Source of the DNA: Nitrosopumilus sp.
Lineage (GTDB): Archaea; Thermoproteota; Nitrososphaeria; Nitrososphaerales; Nitrosopumilaceae
DNA length: 64,000 nt
Assembly (NCBI GenBank): GCA_965249555.1
Contig: OZ252243.1
Span: forward strand, 704,001 to 768,000
Reading direction: 5' to 3'
A program made the translations under genes and the position numbers. The notes under the pieces are model-generated. The model did no database searches and was not told the origin of the DNA. It saw only the letters and a program-made list of their open reading frames with translations. Positions 7,063-34,448 of the stretch are shown here, piece after piece; the stretch's first letter is position 1, and every line of letters starts with the position of its first letter.

Positions 7063-7119
7063 GTTATTTGTTAGAATATTTTAAAAATTATTTGTAAAAA
7101 ATACTAAATATTTTTTAAA

Positions 7120-8735: not shown

Positions 8736-8836
8736 GTTATGATACGAATTTAAAAAATACAACAATATTAAATTTTGTTGGTTTTTTATCGAAAAAAGAT
8801 CGATTGGGTTTATTAAAAAATATTGAATTTGCAAAG

Positions 8837-9652
8837 TTACTGAAAGCCTTTTCTTGCCAAATAGTCTGCAACTATCTTTTGTGCATACTCTGCGGGCTCC
8901 ATGTCATTCTCTCTGGATATCTTGGATAACCCTTTGGCATGACTCTTGGATATCTTTAGTGACAGATTCTGTCTTGCCCTGAAAGAGTTTGCCAGCTTTT
9001 GAATATCAGAGTGCTCTGCATTTCCCAATTTTTCCAATGCATCAATGTATCTCTTTTTTTGGAAGGAATCATATTTTTTTATTCTCTCAACTATCTCTAT
9101 TGCCTTGTATGGGGCGGTGACTACCTTGCAGATTCTGATTGCATCCCGTTTGGATAGGACCTGGGGCACCATATCTCGTACCATATCTGGTACCACGGCA
9201 AATCCGAGATACTCCCTAAATGTTGCAGGTTTTATTCCCAATATCTGTGCAGCCTCGCTCTTTCCCATCTTTTCTGCCAAGAACTGGCACGATGCTACCA
9301 TCTCATTTGTAGTCATGTCCTTTCTGTGCATGTTCTCAATTATTGATGCCGCCTTTGCATCCTGTATGTTGCAGGAGCTGTTCTTGGATAGTATCAGTAC
9401 TGGAATGGTCTTTGAGCCAAGTCTTTTTAGCGCTGCAAGTCTTCTCTGGCCTGACATTAGCAGGTAGGAGTTGTTCCCATTCCTCTGAACCATTGGCGGG
9501 TTTTGCAGTCCTTCCTGTGCTATGGAGCGTGCAAGGGAGTCAATGTCGGTATTATCCAATGTCCTTGCCTGTGCCTCCTTCCATATTGTGATTGTATCGA
9601 TTGGAACTTCCTTTAACGAATAGGATATCGGGTTTTCTTTTATTTTCTGCAA
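8837..9652 (-). CDS. ParB/Spo0J-family protein
   Basis: LARSIAQEGLQNPPMV, LMSGQRRLAA and SIIENMHRKDM, followed by an HTH (EAAQILGIKP). Confidence 0.9.
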   Translation of the reverse strand: MQKIKENPISYSLKEVPIDTITIWKEAQARTLDNTDIDSLARSIAQEGLQNPPMVQRNGNNSYLLMSGQRRLAALKRLGSKTIPVLILSKNSSCNIQDAKAASIIENMHRKDMTTNEMVASCQFLAEKMGKSEAAQILGIKPATFREYLGFAVVPDMVRDMVPQVLSKRDAIRICKVVTAPYKAIEIVERIKKYDSFQKKRYIDALEKLGNAEHSDIQKLANSFRARQNLSLKISKSHAKGLSKISRENDMEPAEYAQKIVADYLARKGFQ

Positions 9653-10231: not shown

Positions 10232-10471
10232 TTATTCTGATAACCCATGATGATCAAAGACTCCCAACTTTGTTTCGGTCTCCCTATCTTTCCTAGCTCT
10301 TTCTCTAGAACCCATATAGCGAGCTTTGGTTCTTAATAGATGTCCACAACATGGACATCTTGCTCCCTCACATTTGATATACATCTCACATACTTTGCAA
10401 CGTTTCCGTCCACCATCATATCGTGTACCTTTTTCTGTTACCCTATATCTGATGCAAATTCCCTTACAAGC
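10232..10471 (-). pseudogene. Small Cys-rich zinc-finger protein whose start codon was removed at an IS110 fragment
   Basis: Manual translation: ACKGICIRY...GRKRCKVCEMYIKCEGARCPCCGHLLRTKAR...SE*. IS110 internal sequence begins immediately upstream. Confidence 0.65.
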
Positions 10472-11161
10472 TAGGTGACTATCGCATAGACGGATTCGTA
10501 CGACAGATAGACTATCTTAATCTGCAAATTGCAGTGATTAATTCAAGAGTGTATGCTGCTGTAAAGACCAGTCCTGATGCCATGATAATAAAATCAATAC
10601 CAGGAATTGGTGACTAATCACTAGTTATCGCATCAGAAATTGCAGATATTACCAGATTCAATGACTCTCACAAGTTATGCGCATATGCACGAGTCGTGCC
10701 ATCAGTCAGAAACTCTGCAGACACGATACACCATGGCAGCATAACCAAAAGAGGAAGCATGACACTACGATGGGTCCTTGTCCAATGCGTCCATTCTCAT
10801 GCAATACATGCCAAGAACAGTGACATTACAAAATTTTACAATCGCATTAAAAAGAAGAGAGGCTCATCAAAAGATGTAGTTGCCGCATCATCAAAGATCC
10901 TGCGAGTGATTTACTGGATGCTAAAAGAGAGAATTTGTACAGAATTACAGTTAGGACTGCAAGTCGCGTTTTGTATGTTGAGGGACAGGCCTCGGTTGAT
11001 AACTGCGGATAGGTCCTAACGAAGGGATGAAGATAGCAATTGAGGAATAAGCCTCGTATGGATACATGTCCGTCATCTTTTGATTGAAAGCATTCTCCAG
11101 CGAAGGCTATGCCTTGGGATGCAAAAAAGTGGGAAATGTATAAAAACAATTCACATGGATA
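10471..11161 (+). mobile_element. 5'-truncated, degenerate IS110 copy with an intact non-coding right end
   Basis: Matches 5980-6677 with small deletions and stops; ends ...attcacatggaTA followed by catac. Confidence 0.9.
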
Positions 11162-11167
11162 CATACA

Positions 11168-11401
11168 TTATTTTTCATTATTATAAAGATGGTCAAAAAA
11201 TTCATCACGTAAATTCATATCTTCAAGATCAGGTTTAAGCCTTGACCAAGGAATAACTTCTTGATCAATATCTAAAATTAATTCTTGATTGAAAGTTGTA
11301 TGATTTAAGATCATGATATTAGGAGTGCCTTTCCATTCACTAAAACCGATTCTTTGAAAAACTTTTCTTACAATGGATACACAATATTCATCACGATTCA
11401 T
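11168..11401 (-). CDS. Possible HicA-like toxin (divergent)
   Basis: 77 aa, directly downstream of a HicB-like gene; VRKVFQRIGFSEWKGTPNIMIL resembles the HicA pattern but lacks the GSH histidine. Confidence 0.45.
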   Translation of the reverse strand: MNRDEYCVSIVRKVFQRIGFSEWKGTPNIMILNHTTFNQELILDIDQEVIPWSRLKPDLEDMNLRDEFFDHLYNNEK

Positions 11402-11406
11402 TTTAA

Positions 11407-11610
11407 TTAACTCACATCTACAGTATTAATTGATTCTAATTGGCTTTTTAGTTCAGGGTGTTTCTCCATGTATAATTTTATAGCTTCTGGGATTTTCTTT
11501 GTTGCTTCTTCTCTTGTTTTGCCAAACACTCTAACAGGTCTCATTGATGGACAATATGCAATATATCCATCACTGCCTGCAAGCTGTTCAACTTTGTATG
11601 TTATCTGCAT
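11407..11610 (-). CDS. HicB-family antitoxin (short)
   Basis: GYIAYCPSM..VFGKTREEATKKIPEAIKLY is the HicB N-terminal motif. Confidence 0.8.
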   Translation of the reverse strand: MQITYKVEQLAGSDGYIAYCPSMRPVRVFGKTREEATKKIPEAIKLYMEKHPELKSQLESINTVDVS

Positions 11611-11746
11611 ATTTCTAACCTCATTTTACCTGATATATAGTTGGATAGTCTTGTTTAAAACTTTTCAGGCTCTGGTCAATCTAGGTGATCTAGTATAGTG
11701 GTCAGAAGTGTCAAATATGGATCTTATTCGAATTGAAAATTTGCGT

Positions 11747-11895
11747 TCAGCCCAATGTAGTCTGATTTTTTTCTGTCATTTCTCGATATTTTTCTAAAAG
11801 AAACTCTAGTCTTTCATCGTCTGATTCAAATGGCTCTTTCCTGTATAATCTATCAACTGCCCTATCTAATGATCTGTGTGCTATCATCAGACCCA
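11747..11895 (-). pseudogene. C-terminal relic of an MmeI-like type IIG/IIL restriction-methyltransferase
   Basis: Manual translation: LMIAHRSLDRAVDRLYRKEPFESDDERLEFLLEKYREMT; no upstream coding region. Confidence 0.6.
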
Positions 11896-12085
11896 AAAAA
11901 CTGAAAAATAGAAAAATAAACTAATCTCAAAAAGAATTACAGCAATATTTGGGCATGAAAAATTTCTGAAGATTGTAATCTTATGGTGTATTGTGTATCA
12001 AACCCACAGGTTTTATGATAAAAAGTGGTAGTACTTTAACTAATCAACTCTAAATAATATTCATATTTATTTTTAATTTAACTTC

Positions 12086-12439
12086 CTATGAAAGCATGTT
12101 TCTGATTGAACTAATTGCCATATCTAGTTTTTTTGAATTCAGTTGACCTATTCTCTTTACTGCTGAATTTTTTTGTAATGTAAAGATATTCGAAAATTTT
12201 ATTCTGCTCTTTTTTTCAAGTGTACCGTCTAGCATATCTATTACATTTATCAAAATAGAATTGTTTTTGTTGCTTAGATTTGATGTGATTCCACAGCAAA
12301 TAAAATCTAATGACTTTTTGTTATGAGAAATATTTGAAATAATCAAAACCGGACGTAATTTTGACATGTCAGTAAAAGGAAATGGTACGAGTATTATTTC
12401 ACCCCGTTCAAACTTTATTCCAGATTTCATCTTCTTCAT
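12086..12439 (-). CDS. PemK/MazF-family toxin
   Basis: RGEIILVPFPFTD..KLRPVLIISN..CCGITS; overlaps the antitoxin stop. Confidence 0.9.
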   Translation of the reverse strand: MKKMKSGIKFERGEIILVPFPFTDMSKLRPVLIISNISHNKKSLDFICCGITSNLSNKNNSILINVIDMLDGTLEKKSRIKFSNIFTLQKNSAVKRIGQLNSKKLDMAISSIRNMLS

Positions 12440-12668
12440 TATCCCACAATTTTTTTGCAGTTTCTTCAGATAGTTTCAACAAGTCTTTAAAATCATCTTC
12501 CATCTGTTTTTCCAAAGTTGTGGCCTTTTGAATCAAAATCTTCTTGTTTTTTGTTATAAGTATTAACCTGTCCCCCTTTTTTATTCCCAACAATATTTGA
12601 ATTTCACGAGGAATTGCAATTTGGCCTTTATCTGATACATTAACTACCTTTAGAGTGGTTTTACTCAT
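12408..12668 (-). CDS. AbrB/MazE/SpoVT-family antitoxin
   Basis: VSDKGQIAIPREIQILLGIKKGDRL, with C-terminal LWDNEEDEIWN; start likely ATG 12668. Confidence 0.9.
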   Translation of the reverse strand: MSKTTLKVVNVSDKGQIAIPREIQILLGIKKGDRLILITKNKKILIQKATTLEKQMEDDFKDLLKLSEETAKKLWDNEEDEIWNKV

Positions 12669-12776
12669 ATGAATAGTAAGAAATTTCTTACTTATAAACA
12701 ACTGGTTTGAGATACCATGAGATATTGTCAGTCTGCAAAAATAAAACTTATGTCAGTTATTATGCAATTAGACCTG

Positions 12777-13481
12777 ATGTCCAAAACAATAATCATTTCA
12801 GATATTCACAATGACTATCTCACAGCAGAAAAAATAATCAAAAAAGAAAATCCTGACAAAATTGTCTTTTTGGGAGATTATTTTGATGACTTTGATGATA
12901 CTGTCCATGATGCAGAAAATACGGCCAAATGGCTCAAAAAATCATCATTACAAAAGAGTAGAATCCATCTTATTGGAAATCATGATATTAGTTACATGAC
13001 TGATAATCCAAACATCAAATGTACAGGTTACACAACAGACAAGCACAGAATAATCAAAAAGCATCACATTACCTGGAGTAAATTACTGATACATTACTGG
13101 TTAGATAATAATTGGTTATGCACTCACGCAGGACTCACAAATGACTTTTTCAAGCAGCAAAAAATGCAAAAGTCAGATTCCATACAAAAAGTACTAGGAT
13201 TTTCAAAAAAGGATCTAGAAAAAATTGATGACAAGAATTATACCCATTCTTTCTTTCAGGCAGGATTTTTTCGCGGAGGCTCAAACATGGTTGGAGGTCC
13301 ATTGTGGTGTGATTATGATGAATTTGCAGATATTCCCAGAATTAATCAAATTTTTGGACATACAAAAGGTGATGTCATACGACACAAAAAAACAAAAAAT
13401 TCAGAGCATTATTGTATTGATACTGGACTAAAACACTATGCAGTTTACCAAGATAATAAGATGGAAATTAAGTCAATTTAA
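12777..13481 (+). CDS. Calcineurin-like metallophosphoesterase
   Basis: SDIH, GDYFD, GNHD, THAG and GHT motifs. Confidence 0.9.
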   Translation: MSKTIIISDIHNDYLTAEKIIKKENPDKIVFLGDYFDDFDDTVHDAENTAKWLKKSSLQKSRIHLIGNHDISYMTDNPNIKCTGYTTDKHRIIKKHHITWSKLLIHYWLDNNWLCTHAGLTNDFFKQQKMQKSDSIQKVLGFSKKDLEKIDDKNYTHSFFQAGFFRGGSNMVGGPLWCDYDEFADIPRINQIFGHTKGDVIRHKKTKNSEHYCIDTGLKHYAVYQDNKMEIKSI

Positions 13482-13731
13482 CCTATTATTTTTTCATGAA
13501 TAAATGATTTACAATCCCTAAATCATTCTATCACAAAATGACAATATTAAAACAAATAATTAATGCCAAAAACAAGAATTCATGTAGTTAGAACGAATTA
13601 CAATGTTATCATACAACATAATTATCAATCATAAAACAACAGATTCCATAGTTAGATCAAATCTAAAAATAGATAATAGTTGGCTCTGGTCAGTTTTTTT
13701 TTAAAGCAAGACACGTTACAATCATATCAAA

Positions 13732-15696
13732 TTATACAAGGTTTGCAAAAAACGAAAGGATGGCTTCTATAAAATTATCAAACCATGATTTTTCAGGTTT
13801 TGGCTCTACAGTTGGTTCCACTATAGCTCTGCATTGTCCATCTACTAGTTCAGTTCCAGAACCACAAAGCGGTTCTTTTGGCTCAGGCATATATTCTGGC
13901 TCTACTGTTGGCTCCACCATAGCTCTGCATTGTCCATCTACTAGTTCAGTTCCAGAACCACAAAGCGGTTCTTTTGGCTCAGGTATAGATTCTGGCTCTA
14001 CAGTTGGCGTTGGCTCATCAGAGGAAGTAACATCTGGTAAATGATCAGAAACACTAGATGATTTATCAGAAGGTTGATTTGAGGCCTCAGAGCATAACAC
14101 ACCACCACAAACTCTGGAGCTCATGGTACTGCCAGAGCCTCCGCCAGAACTTGTTTTAGCAGATTTTATCACTTTTGGACCAGCCTCAGAGGTCGGTACC
14201 ACTACACTATCAGAAGTTGTTGCATAGTTTGTTTGATCATTATTTTGAGAGTCTGAATAACATGCAGTATTTTTTTGAGTGTATCTAGCGGTGTCTTGTG
14301 GATTGATAATATCATTTAACAGCTCTGCCCGCGTACAATCAGATATCTCATTTAAGGTATTTTGTAAAAATACTCCCAACTCTGGACTATCACTTCTATA
14401 CCCAATGGTCAGTCCTTGCACACTATCACGATCGTCATATGTGAACTCATTTGATTTTACTAGTTCTACTCCAATAGTGGATGCATAGTAAGAGGCAATA
14501 GTAAAGTCAGATATAAACACATCAACATCATTATTTTCCAAGGCTCTTACTGCCTCTAAGGCATTTTCATATTCCACATAAGATACGTCTGGAAAATTCT
14601 CATCTAGTATTGTTTTATGTGCATAGTCACTAATTATTGCCACAGTATAATCTGCAAGGTTTTCAGATGTGACATCTAAATCATTAACAGTTACAAGGAC
14701 ATCCCCATCCAAAAACAAAACTGCATTTGTAAAGCTCATAAAGTTAGAACGTTCTGGTACATCAGATAACCAAAACATGACATCTGCATCTCTATTTTTA
14801 ACAGCATCTAATGCGACTGTAAAATTTGCTGGAACAACAAATACAAAACTAGCATCCGTAAGGGATTCAAATTGTTCAATATATTTTCCAGTAACACCAC
14901 CCACATCACCATTTGGTTTATACATTTCAAAAGGTTCGTAATTAGGATCTATTGCCACACGTATAGGAGTATCTACATCAAACGGTACTGTTGATTCCAA
15001 GGTGTAATCATCTTTGTATATGGTTCCATTGTATACTTGTATGCTAGTATTTTCAGAAAAGATTTCTGTAGTTGAATCCCTTACAACCAGACTGATAACA
15101 AAAGTATCAGTTGTTTTAGCATTAAGCAAAATACTGTCTGTGGGCTCTGTAAGGAGTGGCGGAATTACACTATGTAGTGCATCAGTGTTTTGTATGCTCC
15201 AGCGATATGACAAACCATTACTGTCTTCATACCCATGATTTGCCGCATCTAAAACAACTAAAACTGACTGGTCCCAGATTGCCTTGAATGAATCATCATC
15301 TATAAGACTAGTAGTAGATAGGTATTGCTTTAATTCATCATAGCTTGCATATTTTGATTGTATGATGCCATCTCCATTAGCTGAGACTAGCGTTGCTCCG
15401 TCATAGAAAAAATGATCAGTTCCTCCAGCAGTAGCATATGTAGAGGAATATTTTTGAACATCAATGCTTAGTGAATCACTGCTTGCCTGTATGATTAACG
15501 CTGTTTGATTAGAGGTAAGAATTTGTGTTGCACTAGGTGTTAAAGCATAGGTGCCAGTTTCTGGCTGATCTAATATTATAGAGAAATCATCAGTTCCTGT
15601 TGGGTGCTCTGCATATACAAGGTATAATGGAATGGACAATACAAGTAGGGGCATTAGAAAAAGTATACGATTAATGCTCAAGTTAATCATCTGCAC
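13732..15696 (-). CDS. Secreted protein with a family-3 (amino acid-type) substrate-binding domain and a Cys-motif/PE-rich C-terminal region
   Basis: Signal peptide; IRVAIDPNYEPFE...ALDAVKNRDADV...AVRALENNDVDVFI; CGSGTELVDGQC x2. Confidence 0.8.
   Translation of the reverse strand: MQMINLSINRILFLMPLLVLSIPLYLVYAEHPTGTDDFSIILDQPETGTYALTPSATQILTSNQTALIIQASSDSLSIDVQKYSSTYATAGGTDHFFYDGATLVSANGDGIIQSKYASYDELKQYLSTTSLIDDDSFKAIWDQSVLVVLDAANHGYEDSNGLSYRWSIQNTDALHSVIPPLLTEPTDSILLNAKTTDTFVISLVVRDSTTEIFSENTSIQVYNGTIYKDDYTLESTVPFDVDTPIRVAIDPNYEPFEMYKPNGDVGGVTGKYIEQFESLTDASFVFVVPANFTVALDAVKNRDADVMFWLSDVPERSNFMSFTNAVLFLDGDVLVTVNDLDVTSENLADYTVAIISDYAHKTILDENFPDVSYVEYENALEAVRALENNDVDVFISDFTIASYYASTIGVELVKSNEFTYDDRDSVQGLTIGYRSDSPELGVFLQNTLNEISDCTRAELLNDIINPQDTARYTQKNTACYSDSQNNDQTNYATTSDSVVVPTSEAGPKVIKSAKTSSGGGSGSTMSSRVCGGVLCSEASNQPSDKSSSVSDHLPDVTSSDEPTPTVEPESIPEPKEPLCGSGTELVDGQCRAMVEPTVEPEYMPEPKEPLCGSGTELVDGQCRAIVEPTVEPKPEKSWFDNFIEAILSFFANLV
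13800..14000. repeat. 96-bp intragenic tandem duplication (EPKEPLCGSGTELVDGQCRA.VEPTVEP)
   Basis: atagctctgcattgtccatc... occurs at 13823 and 13919. Confidence 0.85.
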
Positions 15697-18600
15697 ATAT
15701 TGCCTGATAAGCGATATTTTGAGTGACTAGTGTGTCGGGTGTTAGTAAAGACTCGGCATGCTCAAAGTTCATTCTATATTTTATTGTAATTGTTTCAAGG
15801 GGTGCCAGATTTTCTCCAAGTTCTTTCTTAGAGTCTAGACGCTCAAATGTACCTTCAATTAACACCTCAATTACTGGAGAATCTATTGGATTGCCTAAAG
15901 AGTCAGATGGAAATACAGATAGAATATCAATTGTTTTAACGCTGGTATTTGTGATAATCTGCTCTTTCACAGCAGATAGTAAAGAGTCAGCATCTGCTTT
16001 TCCAAAGTTGATAGCTGGGGATTCCAAGTTAATGCTGCAAGAGAGATCTGTTGAATCAAATCCTCCATCTGCATAATAAGTGCCAAGTCGCTCCCAACCT
16101 GTCTGTTTTATGCCCCATACTGCATAGTTGGCTGCTGCCAAGTCGCCAAATTCATCAAGGGATATATCACCTAGTGCACCATAATTTCTTTGCACTACAC
16201 CAGGTATACCGCTTGCAATGGAGTCAAGAGATGCATCTGTACCTGCTGCATCCACTGCAAGTCCTATTGCCCATATGGTATCATAAGAGGAATATGCATA
16301 AACATTAGGGGTATCATTTGGGAATTTAGACTGTAAATTGGTGTACAAACCAATATACTTTGGAGAGGCAGGGTCTGCATCAAATATACATGATGTAAAA
16401 TCAACATCAACTAGGAATTGCTTTATCTCCGGATCATCAACAAGACTGGAACTGAGTACTTGTGCATCAGAGCCTATCCAGGACACTGTACGTAAAGCAG
16501 GATATTGTAGTGATTCTCGTACAATGTGCTCCAACTCAAAACCGACATACAAAATTGCAATCTCATCACTGCCAAAAGATGATGCACTAACTGCATCAGC
16601 TAATCCACTAACTAAATCTGGGAACTGGCCTTGACATGTAATGTCGGATTTGTCAGCACAGAAAGCATAGGTTCTAGCAGTATCATCAACTGTGCCCCCA
16701 AGATCTGCAAATTTAGTACTAGTGGATTCTGCAAATCCAATACCAAATGGATCATCAATGTGTAATGGAATCAATTGTCTTTTGCCATCATCATACAATA
16801 AATTGGCAATGACAAGGCCATGTTGAAGATCACTGGGTGCTAGCCTGAATATATTATCTGCTACAGCAAGGGATGGAGCAGTAGAGCAACAGCTAACCAA
16901 GGATAGATCAGCACTTTGACCTTCAATGAGGTCTGTCTTTATCTTTTCTAATCCAGATGATATGGACGGACCAGAGATAAAAGAGATGCCATTATTATAA
17001 AGATCTTCAGCTTCAGCTAAAATCACATCAGGATTTACTTGGGAATCCCTAACGTCTATGGATAGGCGCCAGTCGGCATTGTTTTCTATCAAATATCCAT
17101 TAAAGTCTGATACTGCTACAAAGGTAGCATATTTCCTGTGGTCCCCTGCATCATCCTGCCTGCCAGTTTCTGGAACTATGGCACCAATACCAAATACGGT
17201 TTTATCAGTTCTCACCCAAGATGGATCTCCTGTATCAGATACACTAATTGTATAATAAGCATCAGGTGCATCTAAATCACCAAAAATATTTAGAGAGTAT
17301 TGCCCTAATGTACCATCATAAGAAGTGGCAGGATCATCCAAGTCACCTTTTATTAATGCAAAATCATCACTGTGTTTAGTTACCAGGTCGCCAAAAAGTT
17401 TCACACTATCATGTGCAGAGTTGTGATATGAATGATAATTTACACCAAATGGTTTTAATGCGTCTTGTAGTTCTAGTGAGAGAATATTTGACTCTATGCC
17501 AAATATGACAGAAGTAAAGCTTACCTTCCTAGCAAATTCTAATGCCTTACTATTCTCCAATATGGTAGGGTCATATCCAATGGCGCCAGATGTATACCAT
17601 TTTAGATTACCTAAGACACTATCAGCTTCAATATTATCAGCCAAACTAATAAAATGAGAATTCAATCCAATAAGCAATACTGCGATTTCTGCATCAGCAG
17701 GAGGATCTGTTCCAGCAGTTAGTGCAGTGTAAAATCCTTCCATATTTGCCACAGCTACTGAATAATCTTGCTCTTTTGTTAATGCCTGCACGTTAGTATT
17801 GTCAGGAAATGAATCACGATAATCTCTACCCCATTCATCGTCTGTGTAGAAGATTAAAAGTTCAGTCTTTCCATCAGTCGCTAAAATCTCTGTCAATGCA
17901 TTTTTTTCATTTGATAGATCTGGCACCAGTCTGTATATGTTATCTGTTACAGCAAGGGATGTAGCAACAGATGAAGGAGAAATTAAGATAGCATCAGTAG
18001 AATCAAAAAATGGCTTTGCTTGTGCAACACTGGAGCTAAAAGTTACTCCTGCAAAATATTTTATCTTCTCATCAATAACATATGGAGAGGCAAAGACAAA
18101 ACCATCATGCAAGACAAACCATGCACGTCTTGTTTGCTCCAAGCCAGTAACAGGGTCATCAATGGTGTAACTTACCCAAGTACCAGTACTACCAACAGAC
18201 TCTAATTCAGATAAAATCTCCTCAGGGCTCCTGTCAGGTGTACTTACATCTAAAGAATTAACACCAACTAAAGAAGGATATTTGGCATTTGCAACTATAT
18301 CAAGACTGGTACTATGAATTACAAATGGGTAAAACAACTCTGAATCAGAATCAAATGAACCAGTAATTCCTGCAAACTTGTCATCAGCAGAATTAGCATC
18401 ATATGTGGCAATTGCTGCATCAATTACCTCCACTAAGAGAGGCTTGTGACCTGCATCCCCAATAGGTGGGTTGTACCCTGCACCGATAATATGTCCAGAA
18501 GGCTCGTGTAATACAAGCAAAGAGCGCTTGATGCCATCAGTGCCAGTTACAGTATTATCAAAAGTATACTGCCACCACAACTCTGGAGCACCACTATCAA

Positions 18601-20854: not shown

Positions 20855-20891
20855 GCTTTAGTAAAAAAAAGTGATATTATAAAGGTTAAGA

Positions 20892-20981
20892 GTAGATATA
20901 TCAAACACTTTAGATGTATCCATGTGAATTGTTTTTATACATTTCCCACTTTTTTACACCCCAAGGCATAGCCTTCGCTAG
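20892..20981 (-). mobile_element. IS110 right-end relic (20917-20981) joined to an IS66 right-end relic (20892-20916)
   Basis: The reverse complement reads tagcgaaggctatgccttgggg...gtataaaaacaattcacatggaTAcatctaaagtgtttgata. Confidence 0.8.
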
Positions 20982-21015
20982 CAGGTTGCCGAATGTCATT
21001 TATAATTTTGAGAAT

Positions 21016-21330
21016 TTAATTTTTATTTGATTCAATTAAAAATAGATTTTTCTCGAATCTGCCTCGTTTCTCTGCCTTTTCAAGTTGAATTTTACCAAAT
21101 TCTTTCAATGATGTGCCTCGTAGGTTTACAATTTTTTGAATGACTTCCACCATATCTGCAAGTTCTTCTACTGAACTACTTTCATGATATTCTTTCAACT
21201 CTTCATCCAGTTTTTTGTCTAGTTCTACTAGAAACTCTTCATCAGATAATGTTTTGATTTCACATGTTCTGCCATGTTCTTTGATGATTTCTGGAATCCT
21301 ATCTCTGATAGCTTTATGATATTTTGTCAA
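21016..21330 (-). CDS. MazG-like nucleoside triphosphate pyrophosphohydrolase (PRA-PH-like), copy 1
   Basis: YHKAIRDRIPEII..KLDEELKEY..EELADMVEV..KAEKRGRF. Confidence 0.85.
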   Translation of the reverse strand: MTKYHKAIRDRIPEIIKEHGRTCEIKTLSDEEFLVELDKKLDEELKEYHESSSVEELADMVEVIQKIVNLRGTSLKEFGKIQLEKAEKRGRFEKNLFLIESNKN

Positions 21331-21497
21331 ATTTTCTCCCCCAAAAAGAATCGTTTGTTTATAAAGATCATCCTGTGCAGGATCAAGTTAACACTTCTCT
21401 GAAATTACGACTTGGGGAATTTTGGAAAAAATTTAGATCACTCAAATTTAAATGTCAAAATTATAAACCAAGCTTCTATAACTTGACATAACCCAGA

Positions 21498-23621: not shown

Positions 23622-24028
23622 CCATATTTTGGATCATGAGATATAATAAAAAAGATCTGCTTGTATCAACAAAGAATGATGAAAATTAATTCAAATAGTA
23701 GATAATTCCAATGTTTGATTTTAAATTTTTCTGACTTGGAATTTCTAGTCAATTGCGCACAAGATCTATTGTACAGCAATAAGTTGAGACCTGAATGGAC
23801 AGAACCCAGAAAAGATAAATCCTAATGCTTGTCTTTTCAAAATATTGAATTTTGATTATGCATCGGAGAAAGATTTTGAACAATTGTTCATCCAAATCAT
23901 AGATGTTAGTGCAAAAGATAGATGTCATTTAGAATCCTATTTTGTTCATCTAACTGATCTTCTACTGTCATTAGTGATACATTCCTTCAGAAAGTATTGA
24001 GCGTTTGTACTAATCATGGAAAGTTCTT

Positions 24029-24275
24029 CAGTTCCATGTATCCGTGTGACTTGCAGTCTTGTAGTGATTTTTGATAATTTGCTCAAAATTATCACCTAGT
24101 CGGTTTAGTGATTTGTCCAGACTTGCTATATTTGCAGAACATTTCAGATTCCTATTGATCAGTTTGTCAAGATATTTTTCTGGAGGCAATGCGCCAAGTT
24201 TTTTCATATTACAGTCTTTACAGGCTAGTGTGAGATTCCAAATGTTGTCTTCAGCAACATAATCAAATGGTAATG
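24029..24275 (-). pseudogene. C-terminal fragment of an HNH endonuclease paralogous to 35642-37048
   Basis: Manual translation PFDYVAEDNIWNLTLACKDCNMKKLGALP..LINRN..IKNHY aligns with PWSYIFADDAWNLVLACQDCNLKKSGSLP..IRNHY. Confidence 0.75.
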
Positions 24276-24381
24276 ACAGTTGCCGGATTAGGATGAACTC
24301 TTAGATCAATTCTTGATTTTTTACTATGTGTTTGATCAGCATAGTATGTTGCTACTTGTATTGATTTGCCTATTCCACCTT
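24276..24381. repeat. ~105-bp direct repeat, second copy at ~29675-29780
   Basis: gacagttgc.ggattaggatgaactcttagatcaattcttg...cctattccacctt is present at both loci. Confidence 0.85.
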
Positions 24382-24578
24382 TTTCTTTTGATATGATTCC
24401 AATCGCCTGTCTTTGTTTTCAAATCTGGTTTCATGAGGATATTTTTTACAGCATCACAAACCCCTCTAAACTCATTGGAATATACTGAACCTCGAGGACT
24501 GTCGTTTTGTAGAATTACACGAACTGACAATTTTCATGATTGTAATAATAGAATTCACATTCTAATTGTTAATTTTTA

Positions 24579-25241
24579 TCATATATCTGACCGTAACCTA
24601 TTTCCATTCTTGTCAAAATCCATTTTACAATACAACACACCATTCCCATCATATCTCTTCTGCCATTTCCTATTCCCATTCTCATGGTACTCTATTTCAT
24701 AATCTAATTTCCCATTATCATGATATCCTTTTTCCCATTTCCCATTCCCATGGTACTTTATTTCATAATTTAATTTCCCATTCTCATAATATCCTTTTTC
24801 CCATTTCCCATTCCCATTCTCTTGAAGCTCTGCTTCTAATTGCAATTGTCCATTCTCATAATATCCTTTACCCCATTTCCCATTCCCATTCTCATGGTAC
24901 TCTATTTCATAATCTAATTTCCCATTATCATAATATCCTTTTTTCCATTTCTTATTCCCATTCTCTTGAAGCTCTGCTTCTAATTGCAATTGTCCATTTT
25001 CATAATAGCCTTTACCCCATTTCCTATTCCCATTCTCATAGTACTCTATTTCATAATATAATTTCCCATTCTCATAATATCCTTTTTCCCATTTCCTATT
25101 CCCATTCTCATGGTACTCTATTTCATAATCTAATTTCCCATTATCATAATATCTTTTTTCCCATTTCCTATTCCCATTCTCTTGAAGCTCTGCTTCTAAT
25201 TTCAATTGTCCATTCTTATAATAGAGTTTTTTTCGTTTCAT
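24579..25241 (-). CDS. MORN-variant (YwqK-like) repeat protein; probably starts at ATG 25319 with an in-frame TAG at 25293-25295
   Basis: About nine 24-aa units YYENG.L..E.E..ENGN.KW.KG (72-bp repeats); the upstream in-frame sequence reads MGKLPYKE*HENGKLKGEIQYQEDGN. Confidence 0.8.
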   Translation of the reverse strand: MKRKKLYYKNGQLKLEAELQENGNRKWEKRYYDNGKLDYEIEYHENGNRKWEKGYYENGKLYYEIEYYENGNRKWGKGYYENGQLQLEAELQENGNKKWKKGYYDNGKLDYEIEYHENGNGKWGKGYYENGQLQLEAELQENGNGKWEKGYYENGKLNYEIKYHGNGKWEKGYHDNGKLDYEIEYHENGNRKWQKRYDGNGVLYCKMDFDKNGNRLRSDI

Positions 25242-25344
25242 ATTTCCATCCTCTTGATACTGTATTTCACCTTTTAATTTCCCATTTTCATGCTATTCTT
25301 TGTATGGTAGTTTTCCCATTATGTTTGATCCTATTAGTTTTTGA

Positions 25345-25405
25345 GTATGTATCAACCTTCACGCACAAATCAATATCATTACACAAAAAGATCCAAGATC
25401 AACTA
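25345..25405 (+). mobile_element. IS66 left-end relic
   Basis: gtatgtatcaaccttcacgcac...gatcaacta is near identical to 29967-30027. Confidence 0.85.
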
Positions 25406-26413
25406 ACTATATGTGAATACAAAAAGAAGGAATTCAGATAGCATAAAAAATGAACCCAGATCCAGGAGTCGTAATCCATCGTATTCCAAGAAAAGTCCAA
25501 AGAAACAGATTAGGGCAAAAAAAGACAAGGGCATGTATGTTGACATTGACTTGCACAAGGAATTTCTTCTAGCAACAATGGATAATGACAGAAAGATATT
25601 ACAAAACATAAAAGTTGAGAACACTCATAAATCAATCAAGAAACATTTTACAGACATACCAATATTGTCATGGAATCATCATCAGTCTGGTATGGCACGT
25701 ATAGATTTCTTACAGATGAATTAGGATACAAAAATGTTACACTCTCAAACCCGTATCTTACAAAGGCAATAGCTGCATCAAAAAAAACAGGCAAGATTGA
25801 TGCTATGATACTAGCCAGATCTTTTGCGCGGGGGATACATTGCAACATGCCATATTCCAAACAAAAAGATAGTAAAACATCGCCAGCTGGTAAGATACAG
25901 AAAAAAACTCGTTCAGTTTAGAATCTCTCTCAAAAATTCTGTTCATGGAATTTTGTTACAAGAGGGAATCAAGATACCCGGAGTCACGTTCACTGTAACA
26001 TACAACAGAAAACTCATGTTACTAGATGACTATCGCATAGATGGATTTGTACGACAGATAGACTATCCTAATCTGCAAATTGCAGAGATTAATTCAAGAG
26101 TGTATGCTGCTGTAAAGACCAGTCCTGATGCCATGATAATAAAATCAATGCCAGGAATTGGTGACTACTCGTCACTAGTTATCGCATCAGAAATTGCAAA
26201 TATTAACAGATTCAACAACTCTCACAAGTTATGCGCATATGCCGGAGTCGTGCTATCAGTTAGAAATTCTGCAGACACAATACACCATGGCAGTATAACC
26301 AAAAGGGGAAGCATGACACTACGATGGGTTCTTATCCAATGTGTTCATTCTCATGCAATACATGCCAAGAACAGTGACATTACAAAATTTTACAATCGCA
26401 TTAAAAAGAAGAG
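25406..26413 (+). pseudogene. Frameshifted, 3'-truncated IS110 transposase copy
   Basis: Begins actatatgtgaatac, as at 5349; split over ORFs 25413, 25670 and 25824; homology ends at aaaaagaagag (26413). Confidence 0.9.
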
Positions 26414-27738
26414 TACTAGAATTGACTGTACTAAAATGCATAATATTTATCTGTATAGGGATATTTGTAGTTGCCGTCTTCGTGAATTCTTTGAATGATG
26501 AAATTAACAATAATGTAACATTAGTTGTAGAAATTGGTGTCGGAATTATCATTGCAATTATTATTTATAATATTTCTCAAAAAAATGAATTAAAGATTAA
26601 AGAAATGATCGAGGATACATTCAGTATTATTAAAAAAAGAGATGATTTTAGAAAAAAACAAGAAACATATATGAAAAAAATACTTTTAGGCGGATTTATC
26701 AAGATAAAAAATTGTATAGATCAAATATTACATAATGCTAAATCATATGAAAAAGAAAAAGATGCATCTCAGAAGAAACGGTATACAAATGCCATAAAAG
26801 ATAATTGTAAACAAATTAAAGATATTGCTGAAAAAACCCTAGATAATCCAACTCTCATATCAAAAGATTGGTTGGAAGTAAGTAAGATAGATACACTCAA
26901 AACTCTATCATCCTTGTGTAAAAATAGTCCTTCTTTTGAGCATAATAATGTGAATGTTAATTTTTGTGAAAATATAGAAAAGATGATTGATCCTTGGATT
27001 GAAGATTATCGTCAAATATTAGAAAATAAGAGTAGGTCTGAAAAAGAGGTAATATCAATTTCTGAATCAGTGAGTGTACACCTGAAAGAGGATGAAAGCA
27101 GATTAAAAAGCACACCAATAGAATCGGAACCAAAATCTGTTGTGGATAAATTTCCCATTTCTGTTTCGTCGGATCGTACAGTGTATCCACTAGATAGTGT
27201 AATTCATGTACGGGTAAATCTTGGCAACATAATTAAGAAAGAAATCATAACTTATGAAATATTTAATTCAGACAGAGAGTTACTTTTATCACAAACACTC
27301 AATCCGTCTACTTGCAAAGAGTCAGAGTTGTCAAACGCCAATATTTTTCAAGCTGATTTTAAAATGAAAGGAGACAAATGGATAGTAGGAAATGAATATA
27401 TCGTCAGAGCCACTCACGCTGCTTCATATGCCGAAGATTCATTCACGATTGATCAAAGAATGCCTGTTATTCAATCAGATAAATCCGTATACACGATTGG
27501 TTCTGACATGATACTGACTGTGATTGATCCTGATGCAGATAAAGACAATCAAATAGCTGAATATGTTGGCAATAGAAATGATTCCAAATTAATCATTGAA
27601 TCCAAATATGATAAAATTGATGGCTATAAATTAAAAGAGACAGGTGATTCCACAGCAATATTTCAAGGAGTTGTTAGAATTTTGAGAATAAAAAAAGATG
27701 GAACAGTGATTACAAGAAATGTAGATGGAAAGATAATT

Positions 27739-28881
27739 GAGACATGGGCATAATCTATTCTAATTTTTAACCGATTTCTCAAATTATTCAAATAGAAAAA
27801 GCCAAGGATCTCAATCATGTTTTGTTCATTGGAATGATTACAAAACAAATAAAAATCCCTGACAAGATTCTATGTGAGTCATTTCTTATTAGTATTTTGT
27901 ATCTGGTTGGAACACTATATCTGTATGAGAATGCAGTGAGACGAGGACGGCCATATGTCTATTCAACTGTTCTGATGGTTCAGTTATTCATCATAAAGTC
28001 ATGGATGAGAATTCCAAGTAACAACACACTGCATTATTTTCTCTCAATCAAATGTACCAATGACAAATTACTCAAGGTTTGCAGACTAAACCAAATCCCT
28101 GACAGAAGGACAATTGACAGAAGATTTCAATGCTTGCCAATCAATGAAATTATTAACACTGTAGGAAATTTGTTTGTCTCAGAAGGATTGGTGAATAGTG
28201 AATCAGCATCAGTTGATAGTTCAATGCTAAAAGCTTCAGGTCCAGTATGGCACAAATCAGACATCAAAAAGAATCACCTACCAATTGCAGGAATTGACAC
28301 AAATGCCAGGTGGGGATTCTCCAAATCAAAGGGTTGGGTGTATGGATACAAACTACACATGAGTTGCAGTACGGGAAGACTAGTTGTTCCATTATCTGCA
28401 TGTGTAACTACTGCAAATGTCCATGATAGCAAGCCATATGAGAAATTGATTGGGTCACTTTCTGGATTGATGAATAACATACTGTGTGATCCGGCATATG
28501 ATGATTCCAAACTATACGAGTCAACTAAGAATAATGCCATGAGATTAATCTGTCCGGTCAAAAAATACCCGTCTACGCCGCCAGCCAGAATAAAGTTGAT
28601 AGGGTTTTACAATTCAGCAGTTGGTCGGAAATTATATTCTCAGAGAAAAATATCAATTGAACCACTCTTTGAAATAATCAAGGATACGTTTAACATTAGA
28701 ACAGTTCCGGTGAAAGGATTTGAGAACGTACAATCATTCGTGCTGATTTGTGTGCTGGTGTATCAGTTGGCAGTGTATTATAATTGTGTAATTGGAAGTG
28801 GGAATCCAAGGATTGTGAAAAGAATGCTTTGTTGTTAGAGAAGAGTCTTGGTTTTTTTGTAAATCATTATGCCCAAGTCTC
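27739..28881 (+). mobile_element. Intact DDE insertion sequence (IS982/IS5-like) with 16-bp TIRs and an 8-bp TSD
   Basis: TIRs gagacatgggcataat / attatgcccaagtctc (1 mismatch); TSD agataatt at 27731-27738 and 28882-28889. Confidence 0.9.
27822..28838 (+). CDS. DDE transposase (DDE_Tnp_1-like)
   Basis: VDSS, GWVYGYKLH, TANVHD, CDPAYD and RKISIEPLF motifs. Confidence 0.92.
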   Translation: MFIGMITKQIKIPDKILCESFLISILYLVGTLYLYENAVRRGRPYVYSTVLMVQLFIIKSWMRIPSNNTLHYFLSIKCTNDKLLKVCRLNQIPDRRTIDRRFQCLPINEIINTVGNLFVSEGLVNSESASVDSSMLKASGPVWHKSDIKKNHLPIAGIDTNARWGFSKSKGWVYGYKLHMSCSTGRLVVPLSACVTTANVHDSKPYEKLIGSLSGLMNNILCDPAYDDSKLYESTKNNAMRLICPVKKYPSTPPARIKLIGFYNSAVGRKLYSQRKISIEPLFEIIKDTFNIRTVPVKGFENVQSFVLICVLVYQLAVYYNCVIGSGNPRIVKRMLCC

Positions 28882-29473
28882 AGATAATTGATAAAATTCA
28901 GGGAAGTGAAATTAATGATGGATTTATTGGTGGGATGCCTGGAGATGAGTTGACAGCCATATACAAGAACAATACAGGTACAGCACGTCTTACATTCTTT
29001 ATTGCAAATTTTGGCGCAACTATAGAACTTGACCAAAAAATATACAGGCCTACAGATAAAGTATACATTACAATTGTCGCACCTGATTTTAATTTTAATT
29101 CTAATATGATTGACAAAATAGGAATAAATCCTGAAAGCATCATAAATATTTGTACTCGTAAAGACAAGATGGAGAGATATCAACTGGTTGAAACAGGTGT
29201 AGATACTGGAATTTTTACAGGTGAAATTCAATTGGGTAGGAACGTAGGCGAACAGATATCAAAAACAAACGGCATTGGACCTACTGATGGAGAATTAATG
29301 TGTGAAGATGATGATTTCATAGAGGTTTCATTTAATTTGTTTGGAGATGAGGAGGTTTTAGGAAGAGCTAAGATAAAATCTGTTGTGAATAAACCATGAC
29401 TTTGTAAAACCGCATCAAGGATTGAATAGAAAACACCTGCAGAAGCAACAAACATTGATCTTGATTTGGGTAC

Positions 29474-29704
29474 TGACAAATATTTGGATTTGGTCAAGCC
29501 GGAACTAAAGTCGATTTTGTAAACAATTTGGGAAAGAGAATCAAGAAAATTACAATAGTCAATGAGGAGGATGCCATCAAAGTTACACCTACAGGTTGGA
29601 TTGATAAGAAAATATGGCAAGAGATAAATGATATTTTGGGACTTTGCAAGTTTTGTTGGTTGTCAAATGGCAAGGACAGTTGCAGGATTAGGATGAACTC
29701 TTAG
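29474..29704 (+). pseudogene. Possible small frameshifted hypothetical gene
   Basis: Open stretch VDFVNNLGKRIKKITIVNEEDAIKVTPTGWIDKKIWQEINDIL...KDSCRIRMNS* with no in-frame start. Confidence 0.35.
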
Positions 29705-29780
29705 ATCAATTCTTGATTTTTTACTATGTGTTTGATCAGCGTAGTATATGCTACTTGTATTGATTTGCCTATTCCACCTT

Positions 29781-29936
29781 GAAGATAGCATTGAGGTTAA
29801 AGCCTCGTATGGATACATGTCCGTCATCTTTTGATTGAAAGCATTCCCTAGCGAAAGCTATGCCTTGAGATGCAAAAAAGTGGAAAATGTATAAAAACAA
29901 TTCACATGGATACATCTAAAGTGCTTGGATACATAC
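29781..29936 (+). mobile_element. IS110 right-end relic (donor loop to TA 29911-29912) joined to an IS66 right-end relic
   Basis: Matches 6546-6677, followed by catctaaagtgcttggatacatac, which resembles the IS66 right end at 31387-31408. Confidence 0.85.
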
Positions 29937-29966
29937 TAATGATCATGTTTATAAATTCATGAAAAA

Positions 29967-31408
29967 GTATGTATCAACCTTTACGCATGAATCAACACTA
30001 TTACACAAAAAGATCTAAGATCAACTAAATCATCATACAAAACATGTCAGGTTGTGGTCATGAGAAAATCATCATACAGCTACAAGAAGAGATAAAACAA
30101 CTACAAGCAGAGATAAAACAACTAAAACTAATCACAGGGAATCTCATAGAATCAAACAAGGAACTGCAAAAAAAGCTGTCATATTATGAGAATGCGCACT
30201 CTCCGCCATCAAAGAATTCCCTTGAATGGAGAAAGCAAAAAAGACAACACAGACAGCCAGGCAAATCAAGACGTGGTGGAATAGCAGGACACGTTGGCAA
30301 GACACAGAAATTCAGACCAACTAGCACCAAACACCACAGATCAGATGCATGTCCCAAATGCGGTAGTGAAAATATTCATCAAACCAAAACCTGCAAAAGG
30401 ATAATGGTTGAGATTCCTCCACCAACACCCTACGGTATAACTGAGCATGTTTTGAATCAATACATCTGCATGGACTGTTCTGATAATTTTCAAACCACGG
30501 GAAACCTTCCACTACATGGATGTTTTGATGGTTCAGTGATACGTGAGGTCGTCTCACTGTTCTCAAAGAGATTGCCATATGATACCATCAGAACCACACT
30601 CTATGAAAGATATGGATTAGAAATCAGCAATACAACCGTACAATCCATTCTTCGCAACGGTAGTGTGATGTTAGAGTCATTTTACAATACAATCCACAGC
30701 GAAATCGTGACTGAAAAGATTCTCGGAATCGATGAGACAGGATTTTCAATTGATGGAAATACTGGATGGATGTGGGTTGCAAGAAGCAAGACTAGTGCAC
30801 AGTATGCCTTGGAGTACAGCAGAGGTGCCAATGTTCTAAAAAAGTACTGGAAGAAATTCAAAGGAACCCTAGTGTCTGACGGATATGCTCCGTACAGGAC
30901 AGTATTTTGTGATAACACAAAGCAGAGATGCACTGCACACCTGCAGCGCGATGCCAAATATCTGGCAATAAAATCAAAAGACAAAAAGGCCAGGATTCTA
31001 TACGAGAAACTCTCAGATATGCTAGGTCATGCCAGGGTTTGGAGTGTAGGTAATCGTCATACAAAACGGCGGGAAACGTACAGGAATGATTTACTAAAAC
31101 AGCTGGACCGTATCATTGCACGATATTTGAAAGGTGATATGGAGATGGTTCAGTTTGGCAAGAAGCTAAAGACTGCAAGGAACAGCATGTTTACGTTTGT
31201 CATGGATGGCGATGTCCCGTCAACTAACAATGATGCAGAGAATTCCATTCGAAAGTGCGTGATGCAGAGGAATGTTCGCGGGCAGATGAAGAGTGATCAG
31301 GGCATGAGGATGATCTCAGTCTTTCTCACATGCTTTGAGACATGGAGAATAAGGGAATTGAACATGTTTTCTGAAATGGCAAAATACATCTAAGTGCTTA
31401 ATACATAC
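29967..31408 (+). mobile_element. Intact IS66-family element (single-ORF type)
   Basis: TIR gtatgtat/atacatac; 8-bp TSD atgaaaaa at 29959-29966 and 31409-31416. Confidence 0.92.
30044..31393 (+). CDS. IS66-family transposase (TnpC-like)
   Basis: Coiled coil, HSPPS, CPKCG/CMDC zinc ribbon, GIDETG, LVSDGYAPY, QRCTAHLQR and TNNDAENSIR. Confidence 0.95.
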   Translation: MSGCGHEKIIIQLQEEIKQLQAEIKQLKLITGNLIESNKELQKKLSYYENAHSPPSKNSLEWRKQKRQHRQPGKSRRGGIAGHVGKTQKFRPTSTKHHRSDACPKCGSENIHQTKTCKRIMVEIPPPTPYGITEHVLNQYICMDCSDNFQTTGNLPLHGCFDGSVIREVVSLFSKRLPYDTIRTTLYERYGLEISNTTVQSILRNGSVMLESFYNTIHSEIVTEKILGIDETGFSIDGNTGWMWVARSKTSAQYALEYSRGANVLKKYWKKFKGTLVSDGYAPYRTVFCDNTKQRCTAHLQRDAKYLAIKSKDKKARILYEKLSDMLGHARVWSVGNRHTKRRETYRNDLLKQLDRIIARYLKGDMEMVQFGKKLKTARNSMFTFVMDGDVPSTNNDAENSIRKCVMQRNVRGQMKSDQGMRMISVFLTCFETWRIRELNMFSEMAKYI

Positions 31409-31426
31409 ATGAAAAATGTGTTAAAT

Positions 31427-31615
31427 ATGGAAGATATTATAAAAACAGGTGAAAAAGCCCCTAAAAGTGGAAATTATGAATATGCAGGACATCCTGAGAA
31501 AAAGACAAGCTGTAGTCCAACTAATGAAGAGAAAATCATTCCACTTGAAAAAGGAGAAATAGCACCACCAATAAAATCATGTGAAGAACCAGCTTTATGG
31601 AAATTTAGAAATTAA
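31427..31615 (+). CDS. YjzC-like small protein
   Basis: KTGEKAPKSGNY...IPLEKGEIAPP...W pattern. Confidence 0.7.
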   Translation: MEDIIKTGEKAPKSGNYEYAGHPEKKTSCSPTNEEKIIPLEKGEIAPPIKSCEEPALWKFRN

Positions 31616-31692
31616 AAATAATTAATTTCCACAATATACTTTTTTTCTATAATTCATATCTAGGTTAAGTAAATTTGTTATGTGGTTTCCAC

Positions 31693-31710
31693 ATTCACAT
31701 GGATACATAC
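31693..31710 (+). mobile_element. Minimal IS110 right-end/IS66 TIR junction relic
   Basis: attcacatggaTAcatac is identical to 6665-6682. Confidence 0.6.
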
Positions 31711-33960: not shown

Positions 33961-34448
33961 AGGTTATATTTTTTTGATGAGATTAAACATCTTTCTATTG
34001 ATCTTTAGACTATTGACAAATTATTTTCAATAATCTTCTTATTCTTTTTGTCATCAACTACAAATTTACAGATACTTTTAGTTTTGACTTTGCTTCTGCA
34101 CGTTGTTTTGATAAAGTGTGGAGCTGGACTCTACAAATCTCTTCTTTATTGGAGTATTGAGAATTCTATTTACCATGATTGGTAAATGTATAATTTATCA
34201 TAACACCAAGATTGTGATTTTTCACATTGCTTGTCACAGGCAATAATTCTAGGTGATTGGGTACCTACAGCCTCTAGATTATTGTGGAATATTTCATAAA
34301 AATAATGGATGGACTTTGTATCATTTGCAAAAACAATCCCTGATGAATCATTGTTAGTATAATTCCTAGAATCAAGATACGCCGAGAATCTTTCCTGTAC
34401 TTTTTATAAAAACAAGACTCTCTATATCATGAAAAGCAGGGACAAAAT

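Follow-up and report, generated by a model that had tools for sequence, protein, structure and literature searches.

An IS1111-like IS110 element with a predicted guide RNA that matches the ends of IS66 elements in a Nitrosopumilus genome

Introduction

The stretch of 64,000 nucleotides analysed here (hereafter the window; G000:C1:704001-768000) belongs to a Nitrosopumilus genome that consists of a single contig of 2.23 Mb with 34.4% G+C. It contains a complete insertion sequence (IS) of the IS110 family together with several pieces of the same element, some of which abut the ends of elements of another family, IS66. The question raised by this locus is how the ends of one mobile element come to lie within the ends of another. 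Our reading, to which we assign a probability of about 0.8, is that an IS1111-like IS110 element would be directed to IS66 ends by a guide RNA of its own, that variants of this guide would address further sites inside the same ends, and that the resulting relics would later have been truncated and shuffled.

Results

An IS1111-like IS110 element splits the terminal repeat of an IS66 element

The complete IS110 copy of the window carries an open frame of 373 aa, in which the transposase takes up 331 aa from its ATG (Table 1). Its N-terminal part is a DEDD/RuvC-like domain (Pfam DEDD_Tnp_IS110, PF01548, 3.9e-25) and its C-terminal part a Transposase_20 domain (PF02371, 1.7e-21), and the protein scores 225.6 bits against NF033542 of NCBIfam, 'IS110 family RNA-guided transposase' (cut-off 140). 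Two characters point to the IS1111 subgroup. Specifically, subterminal repeats of 8 bp (ATGTGAAT / ATTCACAT, as read in the window copy) are followed by terminal extensions of 7 nt on the left (TAACTAT, with TA counted on the left) and 3 nt on the right (GGA), and the long non-coding region lies downstream of the gene (206 nt, versus 127 nt upstream of the ATG at 5476). The 7-nt and 3-nt extensions with TA on the left correspond to the description of IS1111 elements (PMC11187229), and the length of the protein fits the 330-350 aa given in section 6 of that article. With 8 bp, the subterminal repeats fall short of the usual 11-13 bp of the same source but remain in the range of 7-17 bp given by PMC11208160.

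The left flank of the complete copy reads ...AAGGTTGA-TA and is the end of an IS66 relic without its last 5 nt, which are found as CATAC behind the right end of the IS110 element. Genome-wide, 46 uninterrupted IS66 left tips read ...GGTTGATACATAC (...AAGGTTGATACATAC) and contain the exact site GGTTGA-TA-CATAC. Therefore, we conclude that the IS110 element split the IS66 end, between TA and CATAC, and not the reverse. The dinucleotide TA stands at both IS110 junctions and once in the 46 empty tips, and there is no target duplication. At all three junctions whose left flank is known to be an IS66 tip (window 5349; genome 502029 and 1345524), the element lies 5 nt from the tip with its left end toward the IS66 interior, that is, its position and orientation within the terminal repeat of the other transposon are fixed.

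The target is represented in the window by an intact IS66 element, whose transposase matches PF03050 (DDE_Tnp_IS66, 4.8e-42) and NF033517 (224.6 bits, cut-off 180); the match to the zf-IS66 domain (PF13005, E 1.6e-4, 22.5 bits) is below the curated cut-off of 27.3. The ends, GTATGTATC... and ...GAT[A/T]CATAC, form terminal inverted repeats, and the element is bounded by an 8-bp duplication, ATGAAAAA, at 29959-29966 and 31409-31416, all of which agrees with membership in the IS66 family. No tnpA/tnpB-like accessory frames are present in the element, which we take to resemble the single-open-reading-frame (single-ORF) ISBst12 group. In the genome, 22 of 27 intact IS66 copies are flanked by a perfect 8-bp duplication and 25 of the 27 have an open frame, at about 97% identity, so that the element looks young and active. 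The IS110 copies are mostly decayed, with identities of 90-97% and an open frame in only three of nine full-length copies. The IS66 right tips vary: 16 of 34 read GATTCATAC and do not contain the TA used by the IS110 element, 11 read GATACATAC and five read AATACATAC.

Seven IS110 junctions in the window

Searches with the window IS110 copy and the intact IS66 element by BLAST returned 45 and 48 matching pieces of the genome, respectively. The IS110 ends analysed comprise 21 left ends and 30 right ends found by BLAST, as well as a 13-nt remnant (31693-31705) found by a search with the terminal 12-mer, which brings the right ends to 31. All 21 left ends follow TA and 29 of the 31 right ends finish in TA.

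A preliminary description of this DNA had listed seven IS110 junctions in the window, all at a TA and all in IS66 ends. Sequence reading and genome-wide BLAST bear out the positions and letters of the seven, and the TA at each. Recognisable IS66 end sequence, as judged by alignment to IS66 ends, is present at five of them (5349, 6677, 25406, 20917 on the minus strand and 29912), and the claim for all seven was too strong. At 25406 the IS110 left end is indeed preceded by 61 bp from the left end of IS66; at 29912 and 20917, the IS110 right ends do abut internal IS66 right-end sequence. At 20917 this sequence is degenerate: it reads CATCTAAAGTGTTTGAT..., agrees by eye with the IS66 end at 16 of the first 17 nt, and reaches an alignment score of 25, just under the 95% null of 26; it is a degenerate copy of the 24 nt at 29913-29936. 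The variant CATCTAAAGTGC seen in the latter occurs at other IS66 relics, too. The right ends at 11161 and 31705 are indeed followed by CATAC, and then by unrelated DNA with nothing further of IS66; since five letters are too few, the CATAC at 11162 and 31706 is not assignable to IS66, and the proposal that it is an IS66 tip is not confirmed. As to the remnant at 31693, arithmetic gives about 0.5 chance occurrences per genome for the exact 12-mer and about 2e-4 per genome with the extra A and CATAC.

Genome-wide, CATAC follows 18 of the 31 right ends versus 0.10% of genomic TA sites (341/332,112), an enrichment far above chance. The other 13 right ends are followed by CATCT (two), CATAT, CATGC, CAATC, ATCTT (two) and six further pentamers. 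Among full-length copies ending in TA-CATAC (n = 6), the left flank is IS66 in three and non-IS66 in three; CATAC behind a right end is therefore no proof of an IS66 tip.

Table 1. Features of the IS110 and IS66 elements in the window, in window coordinates.
Feature	Start	End	Strand	Basis and remarks
IS66 left-end relic, about IS66 positions 6-297	5085	5348	-	BLAST, query 13-297, 86.7% identity; left-flank score 80
Complete IS110-family (IS1111-like) element, 1329 bp	5349	6677	+	Reading and BLAST; TA before (5347-5348), TA last (6676-6677)
Transposase gene, 331 aa from ATG	5476	6471	+	Pfam and NCBIfam; frame open from 5356
Predicted target-binding stem-loop (loop I) of the bridge/seekRNA	6469	6535	+	Alignment, covariation, flank match
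Predicted donor-binding stem-loop (loop II)	6542	6587	+	Structure and covariation with element ends
CATAC, last 5 nt of the split IS66 left end	6678	6682	+	Reading; comparison with uninterrupted tips
3' IS110 fragment (query 643-1340), guide loops kept	10471	11161	+	Followed by CATAC (11162-11166), then unrelated DNA
65-nt IS110 right-end remnant	20917	20981	-	Degenerate IS66 right end in the flank (from 20916 downwards), beginning CATCTAAAGTG
IS66 left end, first 61 bp, ending ...GATCAAC-TA	25345	25405	+	Score 75
5' IS110 fragment (query 10-1034), guide region gone	25406	26413	+	Reading and BLAST
133-nt IS110 right-end fragment, start inside donor loop	29780	29912	+	Reading and BLAST
Older-type IS66 right end, last 24 nt (CATCTAAAGTGCTTGGATACATAC)	29913	29936	+	Score 34
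Intact IS66-family element, 1442 bp	29967	31408	+	Single 449-aa transposase (30044-31393); both tips unoccupied
13-nt IS110 right-end remnant (31693-31705) and CATAC (31706-31710)	31693	31710	+	Terminal 12-mer search

A predicted guide RNA with target and donor loops

When the 225 nt upstream of all right ends were aligned, a constant scaffold became apparent, together with two short hypervariable stretches. A search with the transposase yielded 76 related loci (45-88% identity) in metagenome-assembled genomes (MAGs) of Nitrosopumilaceae, the closest named relatives by transposase being Nitrosopumilus MAGs, and 20 of their non-coding regions align on a conserved scaffold. For these 20 regions RNAalifold predicts two stem-loops directly behind the stop codon. 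The consensus fold comprises 25 pairs, with 97.6% of cells paired and compensatory changes at six pairs; in a control in which the 3' partners were slid by 1-3 columns, only 28-42% could pair. In both loops TA is invariant.

Specifically, the two target stretches of loop I flank a small hairpin. Its 5' strand (6486-6497) is the reverse complement of the right flank, predicting CATACCAAA where the flank reads CATACCTAA, and its 3' strand (6510-6520) equals the left junction GGTTGA-TA-AC, that is, the left flank followed by TA and AC. Loop II is built alike, with a hairpin of its own between AAGAUAGCAU and UAUGGAUACA: the 5' strand (6547-6556), AAGAUAGCAU, is complementary to the left end of the element, and the 3' strand (6573-6582), UAUGGAUACA, equals the right end followed by TA and CA. 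The donor loop covaries with the element ends between lineages, the left end ACCAT occurring with AUGGU and ACTAT with AUAGC. At the level of sequence, one loop is complementary to the flanks and the other to the element ends, as defines a bridge RNA. The strands are those of the published bridge-RNA logic, in which left guides pair with the bottom strand and right guides with the top strand, core included (PMC11208160). The order is that of the IS1111 arrangement, with a downstream non-coding region in which the top-strand complement comes first (PMC11187229); here 6486-6497 precedes 6510-6520.

The preliminary description had proposed searching both IS110 ends genome-wide and comparing the flanks with the guide of each copy. 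In the 21 copies with a readable loop, the right flank of the same copy is correctly predicted by the guide at 114 of 189 positions, compared with a mean of 98.7 in 20,000 permutations of the flanks (p 0.001). For the CATA class at positions 5-9, which lie outside IS66, the agreement is 36/55 versus 31.1 (p 0.004). The best fit is that of the three copies with an intact frame. The window copy matches its flanks at 6/6 positions on the left and 8/9 on the right, the copy at genome 282101 at 5/6 and 9/9, and the copy at 193199 at 3/6 and 7/9. In the second of these (282101-283430), which is the clearest example, both stretches are unlike those of the window copy, the right flank CAATCATAA agrees with its own changed guide, and the target belongs to an unrelated repeat family with six uninterrupted paralogues. 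The fragment at 10471-11161 predicts CATACAAAA and is followed by CATACATTA (7/9). The logo of the left flanks consists of Y-Y-R-A-TA only. Taken as a whole, the CATAC behind the right ends is not element sequence and appears to be specified by the element's own 3' guide RNA.

Guide variants that match internal IS66 sites, and rearranged copies

The internal sites of the window fit the window guide poorly, as had been pointed out before: by eye, the agreement is 5/9 for CATCTAAAG and 0/6 for the left flank of 25406. Other copies in the genome carry other loops. The copy with its right end at 1213508 predicts CATCTAAAA, in agreement at 8/9 positions with the CATCTAAAG that is read at the flanks 20916 and 29913, and two more copies predict CATCTAACA. 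In the copy ending at 1584633 both stretches are changed, and they predict TCAAC-TA-AATCATT, a sequence that 29 IS66 copies contain at position 59 with a single mismatch and that is the exact site of the 25406 junction. In addition, a left junction at the -23 site of an IS66 right end is found in full IS66-type context at genome 1950017. From these matches, each of the three types of IS66 site in the window appears to have had a fitting guide variant.

The IS110 copies are also mosaics of single-nucleotide polymorphisms (SNPs; 123 informative columns), and gene conversion can therefore move guide loops, just as homologous recombination can exchange flanks. SNP haplotypes were tried as a means of identifying hybrids; as all copies proved to be mosaic, parentage could not be assigned to any of them. 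In several copies the left and right flanks do not form one contiguous target. The IS66 ends at 25345 (left) and 29936 (right) do not belong to one insertion, because they share no 8-bp duplication. We conclude that guide variants and later rearrangement have both shaped the present picture. Of the options put forward in the preliminary description, that of guide variants is supported by the matching loops at 1213508 and 1584633 and that of rearrangement, in general terms, by mosaics, decayed frames and discontiguous flanks, while relaxed targeting finds support on the left side only. Seven IS110 fragments across the genome are cut off on the 5' side at one and the same point (query position 829/830).

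Seven further IS110 left ends lie exactly after 31 bp of IS66 left end, at different places of the genome (94800, 1239981, 1247677, 1854324, 2071122, 2194380 and 2210594). They are the only ones that start with G, which gives a perfect pair with the donor loop. Two complete copies of this kind end in TA-CATAC, with no duplication around the unit, and the same breakpoints are joined in one empty form of 36 bp and one mini IS66 of 54 bp. We considered that the 31 bp of IS66, the IS110 element and CATAC might be moved as a unit by the IS66 transposase. This was not supported, as an 8-bp duplication is found around none of the two testable units and neither the 54-bp nor the 36-bp form.

Nesting is not limited to IS110 within IS66. 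Two IS66 copies (genome 527977-529439 and 2120587-2122036) have inserted into the non-coding region of an IS110 copy, within the guide loops or beside them and without duplication, and nesting thus goes both ways. One IS66 copy with a perfect 8-bp duplication (G000:C1:1608209-1609688) ends in ...AATA+ACTAT and not in ...AATA+CATAC; the IS110 left end begins with the 5 nt ACTAT, and the copy looks as if it had transposed with an IS110 element in its tip and been cut 5 nt into it. Two IS110 right-end remnants of about 100 nt (genome 536552 and 2221507) start exactly at the internal TATGGA-TA-CATGTCC of the donor loop, which mimics the right junction, and may be products of aberrant excision.

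Related elements in other lineages

In the MAG OZ250170, a 76%-identical relative has loop stretches that read the complement of TGATTCATA and CTTGC-TA. Eight of nine copies among the matches listed are followed by (T)TGAT[T/A]CATAC and variable DNA, and one is not; three copies stand directly behind an IS66-type transposase gene. The guide corresponds to the GATTCATAC form of the tip, and this element, too, appears to home to IS66-type ends, 9-10 nt from the tip. In three other lineages the guide/flank pairs are ATTACA, AATTTTGG and GCAATTT, with no link to IS66. Matches to the IS110 DNA were found in five of 41 genomes, the window's own included, and the best of them (G015, 81%) lies at a different, non-IS66 site.

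Other content of the island

On the minus strand, a frame of 1665 aa at 3-4997, which runs past the start of the window, is built of repeats of about 300 nt and 492 nt. Eight repeats of 72 nt form an array (24588-25373) that immediately precedes the IS66 remnant at 25345. Two copies of a 300-bp segment, 99% identical, occupy 21013-21312 and 34446-34745; the segment has a 104-aa frame that belongs to no known family, and one copy adjoins the IS110 remnant 20917-20981. Five further regions (7120-9652, 12086-12701, 27822-28838, 31951-33960 and 35642-37048) contain DUF3037, HipA-like kinase and ParB-N genes, a MazE/MazF pair, an IS5/IS982-like DDE transposase, a GmrSD-type restriction enzyme and an HNH protein.

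Discussion

The data presented above are compatible with the following mechanism. A bridge/seekRNA with two internal loops, encoded directly behind the DEDD transposase gene, would be made and would guide the enzyme, its target loop pairing with both sides of a TA and its donor loop fitting the two ends of the element around the same TA. Recombination at the TA, probably from a circular intermediate, would place the element 5 nt inside the tip of an IS66 inverted repeat. As IS66 offers dozens of identical targets, this would explain the complete copy in the window and the frequent TA-CATAC junctions. Guide loops would have diversified in the genome towards further TA sites, at a distance of 61 bp from the left and of 22-23 bp from the right IS66 tip, with one variant addressing an unrelated repeat family. 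The junctions at internal sites would be relics of such variant-guided insertions, presumably those of the matching variants, later truncated or shuffled by insertions, deletions and gene conversion between copies. Contigs of the public runs X1, X3, X4 and X5, compared with 4900-7100, include neither an end-to-end joint nor a bridging contig; they consist of short repeat-collapsed pieces and loose ends of other copies, with one internal 808-nt skip in one contig.

Several observations weigh against this reading. An Rfam scan of 5200-6800, with E up to 5, gave only two spurious matches and no family, and the single-sequence fold of the non-coding region is unremarkable (z -1.04). The guide match of the left flanks is not above permutation (26/60 versus 24.7, p 0.36), 10 of the 21 copies agree with their own right flank at five or fewer of nine positions, and the permutation p-values are generous and overstate the evidence, because the copies are related. 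Between classes, the register of the guide shifts by 0-2 nt with respect to the TA. The copies that bear variant guides are not located at the sites these predict, the internal-site relics of the window have no guide region, and no single guide accounts for the position-31 left ends. Finally, the 46 perfect targets at IS66 left tips are empty and only one of 47 is occupied; so few occupied tips would fit a burst of IS66 after most of the IS110 activity.

The junctions at 20917, 25406 and 29912 might instead be secondary products, arising by recombination or deletion between IS110 elements nested in IS66 or by aberrant recombinase events that provided a new flank. The mosaic structure of the copies points this way, as do the ends at 25345 and 29936, which have no matching 8-bp duplication, the two short remnants that start at the look-alike of the right junction, the 54-bp and 36-bp forms that join the same breakpoints, and the fact that no copy at an internal site still has a matching guide. 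However, all three junctions are precise, with an intact IS110 end and TA. Matching guide variants are present in the genome, both guide halves of the 1584633 copy fit the two sides of one contiguous IS66 site, and the left junction at the -23 site stands in full IS66-type context. We regard a secondary origin as possible, on balance unlikely. It is a good deal less probable that one relaxed guide made all the junctions, at any ...A-TA-CAT... site, with IS66 ends hit as they are numerous. The weak left-flank match, the left-flank logo, which fits G-U wobble pairing, and the CAT common to the right flanks CATAT, CATGC and CATCT would suit such a guide; the site at 25406, which is unlike the primary guide, would not, and neither would the 9/9 agreement of the 282101 copy with its own changed guide, the covariation of guide and flank, or the entirely different guide/flank pairs of other lineages.

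Two further explanations we consider very improbable. Were the transposase protein alone to recognise the IS66 inverted repeats, the complementary stretches would be there for other reasons; this is at odds with the covariation of guide and flank within the genome and between lineages, with the conserved scaffold and its hypervariable loop strands, and with the published experiments on IS621, ISEc11, ISPa11 and ISKpn4 (PMC11208160, PMC11187229). Scarcely tenable, in our opinion, is the idea that CATAC (or CATCT) is IS110 sequence and the link to IS66 merely a common end motif, an outcome that the preliminary description had named as one that would overturn its own interpretation. The right ends followed by CATAC include some distant from any IS66, and right end and CATAC together share 11 nt with an older variant of the IS66 right tip. 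Against this, the 13 right ends followed by something else, and those of relatives in other genomes, where the conserved right end is followed by ATTACA, AATTTT, GATTCATAC and other sequences, speak for flanking DNA, and in the window copy CATAC completes an IS66 end that is otherwise 5 nt short.

Beyond guided insertion with later rearrangement, a wider view, which we offer tentatively and hold to be rather unlikely, is that the IS110 element is a specialised parasite of IS66, with a guide repertoire that tiles the IS66 ends, and that the two elements shape each other in an arms race by bridge RNA reprogramming. Nearly half of the IS66 right tips would have lost the TA needed by the main guide, and the guide of the relative in OZ250170 would have been redirected to precisely this form of the tip, 4-5 nt deeper. 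An IS66 copy would have left its nest carrying 5 nt of IS110 as a new tip, and IS110-mediated recombination between sites in the two IS66 ends may create the miniature IS66 forms.

The locus has parallels in known systems. IS4321 and IS5075, which insert in the ends of Tn21, are likewise of the IS1111 type, with subterminal repeats, and occupy one position and orientation in the terminal inverted repeat of another element. Here, unlike there, the element resides in an archaeon (Nitrosopumilus) and has entered a single-ORF IS66 element 5 nt from the tip, the subterminal repeat is of 8 bp only, and guide variants in one genome would address three TA sites in IS66 ends. The IS621 bridge RNA (PMC11208160) similarly has a target and a donor loop, one strand equalling the left side and the other complementary to the right, and its recombinase is a DEDD enzyme with a C-terminal Transposase_20 domain. 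In contrast to IS621, the RNA lies here 3' and not 5' of the gene, the core is TA and not CT, the right-target guide extends to up to 9 nt with a register varying by 0-2 nt between lineages, and the system is known from sequence alone. The seekRNAs of ISEc11, ISPa11 and ISKpn4 (PMC11187229) also come from a downstream non-coding region and are aimed at repeated sequences. The natural reprogramming seen between ISEc11 and ISXne4, close relatives that differ in the two guide stretches and in the target (PMC11187229), has its counterpart here, where, unlike in the systems of that article, the reprogrammed variants coexist in a single genome, the majority directed at one common victim element.

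The mechanism itself would thus be the known bridge/seekRNA-guided recombination and not a new one. What is new is the archaeal host, the IS66 target, the TA core and the presence of several guide classes in one genome; we found no report of IS110-family elements targeting IS66 ends in a literature search from which supplementary IS tables were left out. In conclusion, the locus would be a natural archaeal example of bridge/seekRNA-guided insertion, with several reprogrammed guides in one genome and many empty targets for comparison, and this would account for an island littered with IS110 pieces beside IS66 ends. In addition, it supplies testable guide/target pairs, a TA core and an apparent tolerance of wobble on the left side for the study and engineering of bridge recombinases.

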